IMG/VR virus record: IMGVR_UViG_3300027881_000017
Location: 1-56,115 of that record
Direction: 5' to 3' (one strand)
DNA: 56,115 nt
Source: a virus
Taxonomy: Duplodnaviria; Caudoviricetes
Both the position numbers and the translations under genes were made by a program. Positions 4,794-23,358 of this stretch are shown here, piece by piece. Below the pieces are notes generated by a model. That model had not been told where the DNA came from. It saw nothing but the letters and a program-made list of their open reading frames with translations, and searched no databases. Position 1 is the stretch's first letter, and every line of letters begins with the position of its first letter.

Positions 4794-5740
4794 TGTATGA
4801 AATGGTTACATTGAAAGAAGTCAAGGCGTGGTTAGATATTGAGTTGACGAACTCAGATAGCAACGTGGCGCTTAATTATATGATTGATTCGGTGACGAAG
4901 TTCATCGAAACATATATAAATAAGCAAGTGATTACCAGGCCATATACCGAGTTCCAGGACGGGGATAGACAAAGGAATTTGCTAACTAAATTTTATCCGA
5001 TATACAGTGTTACAAGCTTGCATGATGACCCAGGTCATGATTACGGTTCTAATGAATTAATAGCAACTGATGATTATCGAGTATATTATGATCATGGCGA
5101 GATTAAACTCACAGAGGGCGAAGGCAAATTTTTTGCCGGCCAGCAGAACATTAAACTGGTATACCGAGCAGGATTGTCAAGGTATCAACTTGTAGATGAG
5201 GCAAACAACTATATTGATATTAAGGAAAGTTCTTCAGGCACAGATTATGCTATTGAGGTTGCGCCCGCCACAACTCCGTTCGGTAAGTTTGAAGGGTATG
5301 ATGCCGAAGGACTTGCGACAGCGATAGCTGCGGCCTTGAATGCTTCTGCGGATTTGGCTTTGGCTTATACTGTTTTTTATAACCAGTCAAGTAAAAAATT
5401 TACTTTTTCTTCAGGCACTGATTTCGATTTGAAGTGGTTCTCCGGTGCCAGCAGTTTAAAAAACATGGCAGAACTTTTAGGGTTCAGCACGAGTACAGAT
5501 ACGCAAGACGGGACAAGTCATTTAAGTATAGGGACAGATGCATTTACCGGTGTTCCAGATGATTTAAAAGTTGCTGCCCTTCAAATTATAGATTTCCTAC
5601 ACAATGAAAGTGCAGCGGGTAAAGGGAATTTGACTCAGAAAAAAACAATATTGCCTCACGGGGAAGGAACCATGGAATTTATAAAAGATATGCCAGTCGA
5701 GGCAAAGCGAATTTTAGATAGTTATTCAGGAGCAATATAG
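4793..5740 (+). CDS. Head-tail adaptor (gp6/gp15-like) with inserted domain
   Basis: VTLKEVKAWL...IETY N-terminus, YRAG, VPDDLKVAAL, ILDSY C-terminus; internal insert of about 130 aa. Confidence 0.8.
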   Translation: MYEMVTLKEVKAWLDIELTNSDSNVALNYMIDSVTKFIETYINKQVITRPYTEFQDGDRQRNLLTKFYPIYSVTSLHDDPGHDYGSNELIATDDYRVYYDHGEIKLTEGEGKFFAGQQNIKLVYRAGLSRYQLVDEANNYIDIKESSSGTDYAIEVAPATTPFGKFEGYDAEGLATAIAAALNASADLALAYTVFYNQSSKKFTFSSGTDFDLKWFSGASSLKNMAELLGFSTSTDTQDGTSHLSIGTDAFTGVPDDLKVAALQIIDFLHNESAAGKGNLTQKKTILPHGEGTMEFIKDMPVEAKRILDSYSGAI

Positions 5741-10257: not shown

Positions 10258-11039
10258 AATTAAGCGTATGTTATATGGTTAAAAACGAGATTTTAAGTTT
10301 GCCTGAAAGCATTATGCACACCAAGGATCTTGCCGATGAGATTTGTGTGGTTGATACCGGCAGCACTGATGGCACTGTGGGATATTTGAAAGAAATGCAG
10401 AGTGAGAATACTCTAAAGTTTGCTGAGTTTAAATGGTGCGATGATTTTAGCGCTGCCAGAAATGCTTCGCTTGATATGGCTACTGGGGATTGGATTTTAA
10501 TTCTTGACGCTGACGAGTGGATTTATCTCGATCAATTTGAAACTATCCGTAAATTAATGTCTGACCCCAACATAGATATCTGGGAGTTTAGTATTCTTAG
10601 TTTTATGCAAGATCCGCATTGGGTAAAAAAACCCGTTGTCATTAAAGGTTTTGTCGAGCGGATGTTCCGCAATGGAAAGGGTTTTAAATACGAAGGAATA
10701 GTTCATAACAAATTAATGTTTAATGGCCAGCTTTCTAAGAATAGCAAGTGCGCAATTAATAATTTTAAGTTCAGAGAGAAGCGCACCTATAAAGAAAAGG
10801 CAGCGGCAAATAAAATACTACTCGATAAAAAAATCATTGACCAGGGATGGACTTTCTTGAACTGTGTTCATTACGCAGATATTTATAGGGGATTGTGGAC
10901 ATGGTTTGGCGATGTAAAAGATGGCAACAGAGCCGTTCATTATTTAGATATGGCATTAAAAATAAAACATGATCGAAGAATGGTTGAAACTAAGAACTCA
11001 ATATTACAAGGAGTGAGATATGCCAAGTCCCGGTATTAA
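10254..11039 (+). CDS. Glycosyltransferase family 2 with helical C-terminus
   Basis: LSVCYMVKNE, VVDTGSTDGT, WCDDFSAARN, WILILDADE. Confidence 0.9.
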   Translation: MKLSVCYMVKNEILSLPESIMHTKDLADEICVVDTGSTDGTVGYLKEMQSENTLKFAEFKWCDDFSAARNASLDMATGDWILILDADEWIYLDQFETIRKLMSDPNIDIWEFSILSFMQDPHWVKKPVVIKGFVERMFRNGKGFKYEGIVHNKLMFNGQLSKNSKCAINNFKFREKRTYKEKAAANKILLDKKIIDQGWTFLNCVHYADIYRGLWTWFGDVKDGNRAVHYLDMALKIKHDRRMVETKNSILQGVRYAKSRY

Positions 11040-18765: not shown

Positions 18766-19303
18766 ATGTGTAATCACCGTTTAACAATGTTTCGCTGATT
18801 TCATCTGCGTTGAATTTTTGTCCTTTGTAATATACAGTATAAGTTCCATCTAATCTTACAAGAATGCCCATCGTCCTCTTCTCTTCTGTTTTAAATTTCC
18901 ACGCTACTTGCTTTCCTTTGCTTAATGCAGGATTTGGGTCTACGCCAAAAATTTCTTTAATTTTTTCTCCAGCAGATCTTAACAACTCGTCTTTTTTTAA
19001 CAATAAATCTTTACGAGTTGACGATTTTTTCTTGTTCGGTTTTGTTACTGCTTCTTTTTGGTGTTTTTGCAACTCTGAAACAAGATCGTCTTTTTTGACG
19101 TTGGCTAAATTGCCGGAAGTATAACCGCCCATAAAAGGCGTTAAAGCACGATTTAATTCCTGTTTAGTCATTGTTTCTAATTGCTGCGTGTTCATCTTGT
19201 TCTCCTTTTGTTTGGTTTTTGTTAAAATTGGAACTCTTGTAGCAATAGAATCATTGCCATAATAATCCTTCATTGCTCTTTCAACCGCTTGGCTAAAAGT
19301 CAT
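18764..19303 (-). CDS. Hypothetical early protein (strong internal start at 19195)
   Basis: RBS-like sequences before both ATG 19303 and ATG 19195. Confidence 0.65.
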   Translation of the reverse strand: MTFSQAVERAMKDYYGNDSIATRVPILTKTKQKENKMNTQQLETMTKQELNRALTPFMGGYTSGNLANVKKDDLVSELQKHQKEAVTKPNKKKSSTRKDLLLKKDELLRSAGEKIKEIFGVDPNPALSKGKQVAWKFKTEEKRTMGILVRLDGTYTVYYKGQKFNADEISETLLNGDYT

Positions 19304-19366
19304 TGTTTTTCCTTTCTGTTTTAAATGAATAGCGGCTGGCGGGATGCGAAATCCCGCTTACGCTTT

Positions 19367-19729
19367 TCAGCCGTTCACAAATAAATTGCTATCAACTTTG
19401 CCACTGACGTCTACCCGTTTGAATTTTGACCGCTCTTTGATATATTTTTTAAACTCTTCTACATCCATATCGGTTTTGTTAGCATAAGTAATACAGGCTT
19501 CGATATCTTCTTTGGTTAATTTGATTGACATCAAGTACATTATTAACCAAGGATCTGCAAGCGAGTCAGCGCGAAGATGATCCTCACCAACCTTTAACGT
19601 GCCTTTAACCGTTACGGTAAATTCTACCGGATATTGCCCAGGTTTTACTTTTGCCCTGGCTGCTTTGTAGTCACCGTTAACTGCATTCTTTAATGCAATG
19701 ATTTCTACTGGTTTTAATTTCTTAACCAT
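19367..19729 (-). CDS. Hypothetical early protein
   Basis: aggag RBS within the repeated leader motif. Confidence 0.7.
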   Translation of the reverse strand: MVKKLKPVEIIALKNAVNGDYKAARAKVKPGQYPVEFTVTVKGTLKVGEDHLRADSLADPWLIMYLMSIKLTKEDIEACITYANKTDMDVEEFKKYIKERSKFKRVDVSGKVDSNLFVNG

Positions 19730-19747
19730 TACTTTCTCCTTTTTGGT

Positions 19748-20014
19748 TTAATACCATTTAATTTTTCCATCTAAATAATAGCCAACTAAATCCCAATCCT
19801 CATCGTAGAACGATGATTCAATTTTGCCATGAGTACCAATGTCCCACATTCTGTTTTTAAATTTTGTAAAAGCGCAATCTCTGAAAAATATTTGAAGATT
19901 ATATCTTTGACGCAGTTTAAAAACGATGATATTGGGATCATTAAAGAGCTTTCTTATAAGTTTTAATCGGCTCGGGGTAATATGGAGAGGTCTATCTCTT
20001 TTTTTAATTTTCAT
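19748..20014 (-). CDS. Hypothetical early protein
   Basis: Likely start ATG 20014; fills the operon. Confidence 0.55.
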   Translation of the reverse strand: MKIKKRDRPLHITPSRLKLIRKLFNDPNIIVFKLRQRYNLQIFFRDCAFTKFKNRMWDIGTHGKIESSFYDEDWDLVGYYLDGKIKWY

Positions 20015-20024
20015 GTTAATCTCT

Positions 20025-20279
20025 TTATTTACCTGGCTCTGGTTCCCAGAAAAAACTATCAATGATTTTTTCTTCGTGTTCTGTAACCATCAATCGAATT
20101 ATTGCCTTTATTGTTTCATGGGGAAACAATGCCTCAATTTCTAAATCAACCATCGGCTCATTAACAATATCTCTTATTTTGTCTAACTGATCATAATAAG
20201 ACATGGCATAAAATTCATCCCACTTGGCATTAATCTCATCGTCCAAATGTTCTTTTTCACCCTGTAATATATTACTCAT
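20025..20279 (-). CDS. Hypothetical acidic early protein
   Basis: aaggag RBS; directly downstream of the hammerhead. Confidence 0.7.
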   Translation of the reverse strand: MSNILQGEKEHLDDEINAKWDEFYAMSYYDQLDKIRDIVNEPMVDLEIEALFPHETIKAIIRLMVTEHEEKIIDSFFWEPEPGK

Positions 20280-20301
20280 TACTTTCTCCTTTGTGGTTTT
20301 T

Positions 20302-20355
20302 GTCTAAGACCCGCCCGAAGGCAGGTTTCGGATATTAAATCCTCATCGGTTAGAC
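20302..20355 (-). ncRNA. Type I hammerhead ribozyme (CCGAUGA core variant)
   Basis: GUCUAA-CCGAUGA-GGAU(UUAAU)AUCC-GAAA-CCUGCC(UUCG)GGCGGG-UC-UUAGAC: all three stems, core and GUC triplet present in an intergenic gap. Confidence 0.9.
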
Positions 20356-20356
20356 T

Positions 20357-20779
20357 TTATTCTTCTTCCATAAATTCAACTAAATCTTCAACATCAATTA
20401 TAAACTGTATAGTTGCTTTTGCTTCCGCAACTTCACGAGCAACCCTTACTGGTGAACTTGAACTATGATAATGACCAAATATTCCGTGAGCATTATTAAA
20501 GTGACGTTTTTTCCAAATCTTAGCGTTGACAACTAACCATATTTTAAATTCAGAAAGACGAGATGTTTTCTGAAACTCATCATAAATCATCAACCAATTT
20601 CTTAATGCTGTTTCTGCTTCCATTGTTGCATCGCCATATGCTTCAAGTTGCATTGCAATAGTAAGAAATTCACAGTCTTTAACTTTGTCTTGAAATTCCT
20701 GAATAGTCTTTTCTGCTTTTGAAATGTGGCGATTAATTAATTTTGCTGCGTTGTTTTTGCTTTCTCTTGATTGTACCAT
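20357..20779 (-). CDS. Hypothetical protein, first gene of the early operon
   Basis: aaggag RBS within the repeated leader motif. Confidence 0.7.
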   Translation of the reverse strand: MVQSRESKNNAAKLINRHISKAEKTIQEFQDKVKDCEFLTIAMQLEAYGDATMEAETALRNWLMIYDEFQKTSRLSEFKIWLVVNAKIWKKRHFNNAHGIFGHYHSSSSPVRVAREVAEAKATIQFIIDVEDLVEFMEEE

Positions 20780-20811
20780 TTTGTTTCTCCTTTGTGGTTT
20801 GTGTAAAATAG

Positions 20812-21148
20812 CCGCCAGTCAGGTCTTAAAACCTGCAACCTAAAATACTTGTCATCGATAAAATCGATCGGCTTGATTTTGGTATCGCTGGCGAAAAAGG
20901 AGTCGGGTTGTTTTAAGGATTCCTCCAGGAAATCGGCCTATCATCCGATTATGTCGTCCTGATGTCTATCTTTGATTTCACCTGCCTTATCACGCATAGT
21001 ACCAATGTTTCATCAAAAGAGATTACTACTGGTTTTTGGAAGTGTTTCAGGCTTATGTCTGCTCTATTCATTTTTTCCCGAGCCAGGGATGTGGAGGAGT
21101 TTGGGGTCAGGTGCTCCCGTTGAACCTGTTTGGTGTTGTTCACCACCC
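20812..21148 (-). ncRNA. Structured leader RNA of about 340 nt
   Basis: Many complementary segments between a sigma70-like promoter and the first RBS. Confidence 0.5.
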
Positions 21149-21154
21149 AATAAG

Positions 21155-21183
21155 AATATACACAATAAATAGACAGAAGTAAA
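21155..21183 (-). promoter_or_regulatory. Sigma70-like early promoter
   Basis: TTTACT-17 bp-TATATT, TGTG just before the -10 box, A/T tract upstream. Confidence 0.7.
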
Positions 21184-21253
21184 CAAAAAAAATTATTTTT
21201 TTTTATCTACTTTCATTTACCTTGCTTAAGTAGAAGAAAAATAATAGTTTAGA

Positions 21254-21589
21254 TCAAAAAATATTTATTAACTTTTTTTGCTTTTTCTCAGACCATTTGG
21301 CTTTAAAGCCATCTCCCACAACATATCCGGTAATAAAGCCAAATTCTCTTAAGTCTTGAATATTGAATTTTTGGAGATCAGATGGTTCGTCCTTCCAGTT
21401 TCTTTTAATTTCAAGCCAGTACCTTGCGTTGCCGCCTTCATTAAAAGAAATTAAAACCATCAAGTCTGGCAAACCGGTTTCTTGGTATCGGCCACCGTGG
21501 ATTTTTATAAATCTGATTTTTGTGGATTTTAGAGGGAATCGTTCATGAACTATTTTTTTTATTAAACTAATATTCTTGTTTTGTAGCAT
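21254..21589 (-). CDS. VRR-NUC family nuclease
   Basis: KIHGGRYQETGLPDL...WLEIK...PSDLQ. Confidence 0.85.
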   Translation of the reverse strand: MLQNKNISLIKKIVHERFPLKSTKIRFIKIHGGRYQETGLPDLMVLISFNEGGNARYWLEIKRNWKDEPSDLQKFNIQDLREFGFITGYVVGDGFKAKWSEKKQKKLINIF

Positions 21590-22445
21590 TTTTTCTTATC
21601 CAATGTTTTTGGATTACCTCAAGTGCGTTATCTAAATATTCCGATTCGGTTAAAAAATTGATACGACTAAGCTGCTTTCCTGATCTTATTTGATTTTCAT
21701 AAAACCAAAATTCTTGTAGTTCCATCCCTGTTTTCTTGTAACTAAGATCCCATTTAAATTGAACATGATCATTAAATAATAGCCCCGCGTTTATTATCTT
21801 TTCTTTTTGCTCAATCATATCTGTATACAGATGCAAGCTGGTAACAACATGAGTATATATTCCGATCGGTATTTCAAGCCAACGAGCCATGACTTCTTGT
21901 ATAAATGTAAACTGGCTGATGTCATATGGAAATCCCCACATCGCATCGTTCGATCTCATGTATCCTACCATATCGAGTCCGTTTTCAGATACCTTAAAAT
22001 TTAAAGCGAGCGTGCAGGGGGTATTTTCTCGGTCGCCTCGATTGTCTTCAAGATAGTTATAAATATTTACCACCGCTTGCCTGGTTTGTGGATCCCGCTT
22101 TAAAAGGCTATATATATATGGAAGCTGCTGAGATATCCTGTAACCGTAGGATCCCGGGTCTATGAAGTTTGATTCTACAAATCTACTATAGTTTTTGTTA
22201 TATGACGTTATGATATTTGGGTAAAAGCCGACGCCGCTGATATATGATAATTTTTCAATAATATTAAACGCGTAATTAAGCCTTCGTTCTTTTAACGTTA
22301 TCAGTGAATCGGCGGGGTTAATCTCCACGACATATGGCGTGTCGGCTGCTTCGTAATAAATTAATCCTCTACTTGTTTTTTCTACGCTTGCTATTCCGAC
22401 GCAATCAGACAGCACCTTTAAATAAATTTGATTGATACTTTTCAT
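21567..22445 (-). CDS. Thymidylate-synthase-fold enzyme, probable dCMP hydroxymethylase
   Basis: TRQAV, catalytic TPCT, YMRSNDAMWGFPYD (Asp where ThyA has Asn), SLHLY. Confidence 0.8.
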   Translation of the reverse strand: MKSINQIYLKVLSDCVGIASVEKTSRGLIYYEAADTPYVVEINPADSLITLKERRLNYAFNIIEKLSYISGVGFYPNIITSYNKNYSRFVESNFIDPGSYGYRISQQLPYIYSLLKRDPQTRQAVVNIYNYLEDNRGDRENTPCTLALNFKVSENGLDMVGYMRSNDAMWGFPYDISQFTFIQEVMARWLEIPIGIYTHVVTSLHLYTDMIEQKEKIINAGLLFNDHVQFKWDLSYKKTGMELQEFWFYENQIRSGKQLSRINFLTESEYLDNALEVIQKHWIRKNATKQEY

Positions 22446-23358
22446 TTACTTTTTCCTTTATTAATTTTGCATATTCGAGAATTTTATCATGTTTAAATCT
22501 AAGATAGTATTGCGGATGCGGAATGAGTTCATGTCTTATATTACACCTTTTTAATAAGTCAGCTGCTTTTTTCCCAAGAGCAATTACAATGCCTGGTTTT
22601 ATAGCAGCATTTTCGTTGTGCACCATCTCTTTATTAACAAAATCGTTTGATGTTTTTATTGCGTTTGTAATATAAAAATCTTGTTGATTTAATTTGGTCA
22701 ATTCTAATACCTGGTGCAAATATGCGCTTGAGTTAGAGTGATATGCAAATGCTTGTTTTCTGCTCGTTCCAATATATGATCCATCTCCATATTGATTGCC
22801 CACAAGCATGATTTTACCTCCATAAATGTTTCCAGAACATTCATACGAGGACATAGCAGCACTCCTACGACATAAAGAATCATAAAATGATAAAACATAT
22901 TCGATGAACCTATTATTGTGGTAAAGTGGCATAGAGATCATCGGTAGAATTGTCTTTTGTATAGTAGTTTCAAATAATTTTATTTCTTGTTGTATTTGAT
23001 CTTTTTTTATAAAGTTTTCATTTAGTTCGTCATGTTTTTTTCTTAAAAAATCAATGTTCGCCGAACAACATAATAACAATGCTCCTTTTGCTAATAAAAT
23101 TCTTTCAATCAAATGTTGTTCCCATGTTTCAAACGGTTTCCGTCCAGGTTTCAAGTGTGGGTATACGCAGTTCCCAAGATGAAATCGATCAAGTACTGTT
23201 CGCAAGCTTCGTGTTAATGCTTTTTCTGCATAATATTTTAATGGTTCGATGTTTTGAGGAGGCGGCCCTTCATGGACATGGTGGTAGTTTAAAATCCTTG
23301 CTAATTTTTTTGCAAGAGTTGTTTTTCCTGAATTGTTTGGTCCTTCAATTATTATCAT
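22405..23358 (-). CDS. dNMP kinase fused to a uracil-DNA-glycosylase-like domain
   Basis: IIIEGPNNSGKTT and LDRFH (thymidylate-kinase-like); C-terminal IMLVG, YITNAIK, IVIALGKKA, HPQY (family-4 UDG fold motifs). Confidence 0.75.
   Translation of the reverse strand: MIIIEGPNNSGKTTLAKKLARILNYHHVHEGPPPQNIEPLKYYAEKALTRSLRTVLDRFHLGNCVYPHLKPGRKPFETWEQHLIERILLAKGALLLCCSANIDFLRKKHDELNENFIKKDQIQQEIKLFETTIQKTILPMISMPLYHNNRFIEYVLSFYDSLCRRSAAMSSYECSGNIYGGKIMLVGNQYGDGSYIGTSRKQAFAYHSNSSAYLHQVLELTKLNQQDFYITNAIKTSNDFVNKEMVHNENAAIKPGIVIALGKKAADLLKRCNIRHELIPHPQYYLRFKHDKILEYAKLIKEKVNEKYQSNLFKGAV

Follow-up and report, generated by a model that had tools for sequence, protein, structure and literature searches.

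The locus examined here raises the question of what a hammerhead motif does between two phage genes when it is complete except for one conserved core base, and whether such a motif is a genuine self-cleaving element, the remains of one, or something else altogether. The sequence-only reading had placed at this site a type I hammerhead ribozyme with a C in place of U at core position 4, just behind the stop codon of one gene and ahead of the ribosome binding site of the next. Reading of the minus strand at 20355..20302 indeed identified a complete type I hammerhead motif, with stem I open and stems II and III capped, in the window, by which we mean the whole stretch of 56,115 nucleotides that was analysed. 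In the 5' to 3' direction of the minus strand, the element and its immediate neighbours are composed as follows:

20357..20779, minus strand: upstream ORF of 140 aa, ending with the stop codon TAA at 20359-20357; no Pfam or PHROG family match
20356, minus strand: unpaired A immediately 5' of stem I, matching the family pattern described below
20350..20355, minus strand: 5' strand of stem I, GUCUAA, pairing with 20302-20307 in the minimum free energy (MFE) fold
20343..20349, minus strand: 5' strand of the core, CCGAUGA, with C3 at 20349 and C4 at 20348 replacing U4, then G5, A6, U7, G8 and A9
20330..20342, minus strand: stem II hairpin GGAU-UUAAU-AUCC (GGAUUUAAUAUCC), 13 nt, made of 4 bp and the 5-nt loop UUAAU
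20327..20329, minus strand: core G12 A13 A14 (GAA), from sequence reading
20309..20326, minus strand: stem III, A-CCUGCC-UUCG-GGCGGG-U (ACCUGCCUUCGGGCGGGU), 7 pairs, one of them U-G, capped by a UUCG loop
20326 and 20309, minus strand: A15.1-U16.1 pair of stem III (A20326 / U20309), to which 6 further pairs are added
20307..20308, minus strand: predicted scissile bond, after C17 (20308) and before U1.1 (20307), from hammerhead numbering
20302..20307, minus strand: 3' strand of stem I, UUAGAC, which would form the 5' end of the downstream RNA
20301, minus strand: unpaired A immediately 3' of stem I, likewise matching the family pattern
20286..20292, minus strand: Shine-Dalgarno-like AAAGGAG ahead of the downstream gene, belonging to a leader motif that precedes three genes
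20025..20279, minus strand: downstream ORF of 84 aa, with its ATG at 20279; no Pfam or PHROG family match

Stems I, II and III of the element have 6, 4 and 7 pairs, respectively, and the cleavage triplet is GUC. Among the bases that define the hammerhead class, C3, G5, A6, G8 and A9 are all present at 20349-20343, as are G12, A13 and A14, the A15.1-U16.1 pair and H17 (C20308), and the consensus U4 is replaced by the C at 20348. The stretch was found, as contigs, in three seawater DNA runs, with no RNA run listed for it; since the contigs of the two other runs, which belong to other studies, are letter-identical across 20348 (X2, 20248-20741; X3, 20325-20475), C4 is not an assembly error of the record. 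The type I topology, the core, the GUC triplet and the UUCG loop claimed by the sequence-only reading were thus all recovered in our own reading of the sequence, in the MFE fold and by descriptor search, and the U4C variant was found again in the contigs of both other runs. The proposed start of the element just past the upstream stop also held, with TAA 20359-20357 ending 1 nt before stem I; stem I in turn is separated by 22 nt from the downstream ATG. The predicted cleavage position, 20308/20307, agrees with hammerhead numbering, and the product expected downstream of this predicted cut would lie ahead of the ribosome binding site of 20025..20279, as had been stated, with AAAGGAG at 20286..20292. 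The leader from the element to the ATG at 20279 is AAAAACCACAAAGGAGAAAGUA, and the downstream leader reads UUAGACAAAAACCACAAAGGAG...

We consider it likely that the element is a genuine intercistronic type I hammerhead of a marine phage, predicted to self-cleave and to separate two cistrons. It would be transcribed within a polycistronic minus-strand message, whereupon the transcript would fold into the three-way junction and self-cleave 3' of C17 (20308/20307), probably at a slower rate than a U4 copy would give. The RNA of the upstream 140-aa cistron would then end in the compact ribozyme fold with a 2',3'-cyclic phosphate, and that of the 84-aa cistron downstream would have a 5'-OH end followed by 28 nt of unstructured leader, in which no more than 6 nt of the ribozyme precede the Shine-Dalgarno sequence. 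The two cistrons would likely become separate RNAs with stabilities of their own, and effects on stability and translation might follow. A weak point of this explanation is that, with the upstream stop codon only 1 nt away from stem I, ribosomes terminating there would cover part of the ribozyme.

In structure prediction, the MFE fold of 20362-20296 (67 nt) was exactly the hammerhead three-way junction (-19.6 kcal/mol, z -3.34), and an equally stable fold occurred in 1 of 200 shuffles of this segment. A descriptor allowing one core mismatch returned a single site in the whole 56,115-bp genome, and the same genome held no site for the strict-core descriptor, no hammerhead of type II or type III topology and no tRNA; by descriptor and covariance model, the element is the sole hammerhead in the genome. 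Dinucleotide shuffles of the genome yielded stems of at least 6/4/7 bp in 0 of 300 cases, of 5/3/4 bp in 5 and of 4/3/3 bp in 37, figures whose significance is somewhat overstated since shuffles are devoid of real intergenic hairpins, a weakness from which the homology evidence presented below is free. The motif is complete and not a product of chance, given the result for 300 shuffled genomes and the identity of the MFE fold with the hammerhead fold. A second weak point is the low predicted stability of stem I in longer RNAs: its predicted mean pair probability was 0.90 in an 89-nt context, 0.06 in a 181-nt context and 0.31 in a 281-nt context. A segment inside the downstream gene, UUGGAC at 20246-20241 (minus strand), can pair with the stem I 5' strand GUCUAA, and in the MFE fold of the 181-nt context it displaces the proper partner of this strand, such that a competing conformation appears possible in these models. 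The Shine-Dalgarno sequence of the downstream gene is predicted to be unpaired in the local fold.

When viral contigs were scanned for the C4 core together with the ends of stem II, 119 loci came up, mostly chance matches; five of them, L096 included, contained complete C4 hammerheads. Further scans, in which different parts of the core were left free, led to about 200 unique complete members of a family. Matches in which stem III, or the 3' half of stem I, was missing did not enter the counts; these were 11 of 133 with positions 4-9 free, 13 of 124 and 11 of 103 in the two samples with the other core positions free, 2 of 60 in the scan with the stem I of the window and 18 of 35 in cellular genomes. 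Several of the set-aside matches look like real hammerheads with one imperfect pair. The build of the members is highly stereotyped. In 197 of 200, stem I is 6 bp long and no more (shorter stems were excluded by the descriptor, longer ones allowed), an unpaired A precedes it in 189 and follows it in 191 of 196, and stem II is a 13-nt hairpin with a U-N-A-N-U loop, the U, A and U being found in 186, 172 and 170 of 187 members, respectively. All of these features, the 6-bp stem I, both flanking A residues and the U-N-A-N-U loop, are shared by the element; its exact stem I recurs at locus L188, and its exact stem II, together with a UUCG-capped stem III, at L157. The flanking A residues and loop II are near-invariant and thus offer no covariation that could bear on the tertiary contact between stem I and loop II, which in hammerheads gives speed at low Mg2+.

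The position of the members relative to genes is equally uniform. Of 201 members, counting the window, 170 are followed by an ORF of at least 40 aa whose start lies 5-40 nt past stem I (median 16 nt), and 165 are preceded by an ORF whose stop falls in the range from 12 nt inside the element (-12) to 20 nt before it (+20); the 1 nt and 22 nt seen for the element lie within this typical spacing. Cleavage under this fixed plan would keep nearly all of the ribozyme with the upstream RNA; the downstream message would receive only six of its nucleotides, at a median of 16 nt from the start codon, a layout that fits a role in separating cistrons. In many members the ribozyme sequence contains the stop codon of the upstream ORF, as UAA in stem I (offset -6) or as the UGA of the core (offset -10), and the type I topology leaves such stops on the upstream cleavage product. 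A dense array is found at L096 (2289-8610, plus strand), where about 15 type I hammerheads occupy some 6.3 kb, each closely followed by a small ORF of 40-150 aa that has a strong Shine-Dalgarno sequence; only the copy at 4987-5038 has the C4 core, the other copies being canonical. Among the genome contigs (L449-L480), members turn up in assemblies with the labels Bacteroidota (Mucilaginibacter, Paraflavitalea, Puia), Bdellovibrionales and Aliivibrio, and the labels also include Burkholderiales, Thermodesulfobacteriota and one Thermoplasmata MAG. This range of labels means that the design spans phages of very different hosts, with a downstream Shine-Dalgarno sequence or none.

As one way of checking its proposal, the sequence-only reading had named cmsearch with hammerhead models. 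With the Rfam models this turned out to be uninformative: at the gathering score there was no match in the whole window, and at E<=10 the 261 nt at 20200-20460 gave nine weak matches, none of them to a hammerhead family. The silence of Rfam says little on the element because canonical relatives are missed as well. Five loci with eleven canonical relatives, L096 among them, likewise gave no Rfam match at the gathering score, and at E<=10 one of three canonical copies on a test stretch was detected, as RF03152 RAGATH-1 hammerhead; the best canonical relative (L096, 5681-5747) reached 27 bits, the gathering score of RF03152 being 56.3 bits. The other Rfam hammerhead families comprise type I, II and III models, which likewise missed every canonical relative at the five loci and so have no power for this family.

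We therefore relied on a covariance model of our own, R1, built from 40 canonical U4 members with the window and every C4 copy excluded. Its alignment contains both-side changes in 14 of 16 helix pairs; that 99.4% of its paired cells are indeed paired is circular, as the rows were picked by a pairing descriptor, and what informs is how diverse the pair types are. Run across the entire genome with its filters switched off, R1 aligned to the element at full length (1-58) with 62.3 bits (E ~1e-14), the next-best match in the genome scoring 14.6 bits, and the sole mismatch of the element to invariant columns was position 4. Family members score 28.4-71.6 bits against R1 (42 hits at 17 loci), a range that includes the element. 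Judged by this sequence comparison, the element is a clear homologue of a large phage type I hammerhead family. The same data bear on the idea that the locus is no ribozyme at all, and instead a terminator, a site for RNase III or for RNase E, or an assembly of chance hairpins. The strong GC hairpin of stem III with its UUCG loop, placed just after a stop codon, could be taken this way, as could the lack of a match to any Rfam hammerhead model, yet a U-tract is absent, no terminator-like site was called at or near the element, none of the 300 shuffles matched it, and the score against R1 is that of a family member, with Rfam being blind to canonical relatives too. We regard this idea as very improbable and close to refuted.

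With the hammerhead assignment in place, the C at position 4 is the feature that has to be accounted for. The commonest stem I class was sampled three times, each time with different core positions free. When positions 4-9 were free, 94 of 100 unique complete hammerheads were canonical, and the six deviating ones all carried C4 (with U, C or G at N7), changes at G5, A6, G8 and A9 amounting to 0 of 100. When G12-A14 and the 15.1-16.1 pair were free, 87 of 88 were canonical, the exception being a swap to U15.1-A16.1, with none at G12-A14; when C3 was free, 71 of 72 had the canonical C and one had U3. The swap is found in L357 (pattern match 10379-10404, plus strand) and the U3 variant, which keeps G8, in L398 (3315-3345, minus strand), both being complete members otherwise. 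In cellular genomes, 17 of 35 pattern matches were descriptor-positive, made up of 15 with U4, one with C4 (L471) and one with a dubious A4. C4 is the main recurrent natural core deviation in the family, at roughly 5%. The six C4 copies of the positions 4-9 sample do not represent six independent events, as three of them belong to one clade. In L007, L029 (identical to L286), L232 and L240, the flanks are 68-91% identical and C4 is present in all. Variation is seen at N7 (U or G), at one free position of loop II, where each of the four bases occurs, and in the distal part of stem III; C4 kept amid diverged flanks is the pattern that would be expected of a working element. A G at the free position 7 occurs in 3 of 200 members, and two of these three are C4 copies (L232:3326-3391, plus strand; L240:3543-3604, minus strand). 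Since L232 and L240 share one clade, a link between positions 4 and 7 is at most hinted at.

What C4 does to catalysis can be approached from published work. According to PMC3088659, U4C 'considerably decreases activity in vitro', and the viroid variant with this substitution (Ambros and Flores 1998, as cited in PMC3088659) is described there as weak in vitro and sufficient in vivo; in the comprehensive mutagenesis of a type III hammerhead reported in PMC9901934, single mutants of the CUGA turn had low co-transcriptional activity. By analogy, the published mutagenesis suggests that C4 slows cleavage. An inactivated relic is conceivable, in which the change of U4 to C abolished useful cleavage and what is left is kept, if at all, as a spacer or as a hairpin protecting the 3' end. 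The low activity of CUGA-turn changes in these laboratory data (PMC9901934; PMC3088659) would suit such an origin, and so would the distribution of the base itself. U4 is otherwise strongly conserved, which speaks against our preferred explanation, and in metagenome contigs all 35 of 35 unique complete hammerheads with the stem I of the element carry U4, so that C4 may be recent. These 35 share nothing with the window outside the element and have no surrounding genes in common with it; L120, the only relative locus found via the thymidylate-synthase-like neighbour (41% identity), has no hammerhead by R1, and at the locus of the element itself conservation of C4, and of the ribozyme as such, was found in nothing beyond the identical copies in two other seawater runs. 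As only identical copies of the phage were found, selection on the element is not measurable, and as the element is the sole hammerhead in its genome, this phage does not depend on an array. On the other hand, 17 stem pairs, 9 other conserved core bases, the flanking A residues and the U-N-A-N-U loop are all intact in the element. Decay should strike other core positions as well, but C4 makes up 6 of 6 deviations at positions 4-9, with only one deviation each at C3 and at the 15.1-16.1 pair, and it is still present throughout a clade with flanks only 68-91% identical. On balance, we hold a relic to be unlikely. C4 is a tolerated natural variant in the family, and its recurrence and retention in a clade are at odds with the simple reading of the mutagenesis data that position 4 cannot change.

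Slow cleavage might also be the purpose rather than the price of the substitution. C4 could tune the ribozyme or make it conditional, slowing cleavage or tying it to pH, Mn2+ or high Mg2+, and might in this way set the fraction of transcripts that is split and fix the ratio of the two gene products. Its recurrence at a few per cent, its retention in one clade and its occurrence next to canonical copies in the same contigs at L096, L187, L235 and L343 would all be in line with tuning. A precedent is the natural A6C variant of phage Bcep176, which works poorly with Mg2+ and does work with Mn2+ (PMC7151607; also PMC3088659), and Perreault et al. speculate in PMC3088659 that the slower variants in phages might be responsive to conditions. 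A frequency of this order is compatible with near-neutrality as well, though, and no second feature accompanies C4, save for the weak hint at N7 in one clade; for the element itself we rate a tuned or conditional ribozyme as quite improbable. For the family at large, that C4 hammerheads, with cytidine for the uridine of the U-turn, form a selected subclass, slower or dependent on conditions such as pH or metal ion, as opposed to tolerated noise, is a doubtful proposition, if one with consequences: phages would then place C4 copies where a partial separation of neighbouring cistrons is wanted, and hammerhead core variants would amount to a graded dial for operon stoichiometry. Taken alone, the present instance adds little; the comparison that it prompted yields two testable points, the fixed plan of the family and the standing of C4 as its main natural core deviation. 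The phage type I hammerhead is a known class, and the recurrent C4 subclass is, in a modest sense, a new observation.

We return to the intercistronic hammerhead that we favour and to the genes around it. The element had been described as lying between two early genes. It does lie between two genes; the term 'early' finds no backing in the flanking ORFs, which are without family match, plausible as it is. The flanking 140-aa and 84-aa proteins had no relatives in viral contigs, and blastn of 19300-21300 against phage records gave no match. A 17-nt leader including the Shine-Dalgarno sequence (AAACCACAAAGGAGAAA) is found at 20784-20800, 20283-20299 and 19733-19749 (minus strand), ahead of three successive small genes, the third copy having one mismatch; the motif has 5 matches at <=3 mismatches versus 0.37 expected. 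The minus-strand arm that carries the element also holds thymidylate-synthase-like, kinase/UDG-like and primase-helicase genes. At 21567-23358 (minus strand), a 292-aa protein of the thymidylate synthase family adjoins a 317-aa fusion protein that joins a nucleotide-kinase P-loop at its N terminus to a C-terminal domain of the uracil-DNA-glycosylase superfamily, a pairing that might point to an unusual pyrimidine metabolism in this phage. A promoter-like site was located at 21183-21155, upstream of a 350-nt leader, and some 450 nt at 20801-21250 (minus strand), between this site and the 140-aa gene, are poor in ORFs and have a G+C content above that of the surroundings. The 350-nt leader (20801-21150) was considered as a structured RNA and dropped, its fold z being -0.5 and its one Rfam match (E 2.4) being, in our view, noise.

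How does the element compare with the hammerheads already described? Type I hammerheads have been known in phage and prophage DNA since 2011, in the accounts of PMC3088659 and PMC6155905 often as clusters around single small genes, and a 2026 survey (PMC13725137) already treats phage hammerheads as described. Clustered prophage hammerheads have been proposed to process long phage transcripts (PMC3088659), and the role of many hammerheads in phage genomes is still called open in passages of PMC6155905 and PMC6765202. Our search of full texts brought up no mention of phage hammerheads with C4; some may be listed in Figures S6-S7 and Dataset S1 of PMC3088659. The element resembles the phage and prophage type I hammerheads presented in PMC3088659 and PMC6155905 in fold, core and GUC site. 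As with those treated in the PMC3088659 text, its location is intergenic in a same-strand run of genes and beside small ORFs of unknown function, and the role proposed for it would be the same, the cutting of long transcripts into gene-length RNAs. It differs from the phage hammerheads described there in having C4 and in being a single copy rather than part of an array. The stereotyped build of the family, i.e., the 6-bp stem I closed by A residues on both sides, the U-N-A-N-U loop and a start codon about 16 nt further on, does not figure in the portions of PMC3088659, PMC6155905 and PMC13725137 that we consulted. The RF03152 consensus is alike in its type I topology, its GUC and its GC stem III, in having a stem I that is short and rich in A/U, and in the abundance of A in the 5' flank, but its model carries an extra 5' hairpin, and the element gave no match to it even at E<=10.

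The known single-base core variants provide two further points of reference. The viroid U4C hammerhead cited in PMC3088659 has the same lone core substitution, there in a viroid RNA replicon and here in an intercistronic element of a DNA phage. The A6C hammerhead of Bcep176 (as given in PMC3088659 and PMC7151607) is likewise an intergenic phage hammerhead with one core deviation, at position 6 instead of 4, and its low activity and Mn2+ preference have been measured. Another known relative is the HHphage of haloviruses HF1 and HF2. According to PMC3088659, it differs from the element by a two-nucleotide insertion near C3 and belongs to archaeal viruses of high-salt habitats, and, like the element, it is placed shortly before a gene, with 13 nt between it and the start codon, the gene being an early one. 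A transcript 5' end has been mapped within 3 nt of its cleavage site (PMC3088659), and the HF1/HF2 HHphage is the best in vivo precedent for the arrangement that we propose.
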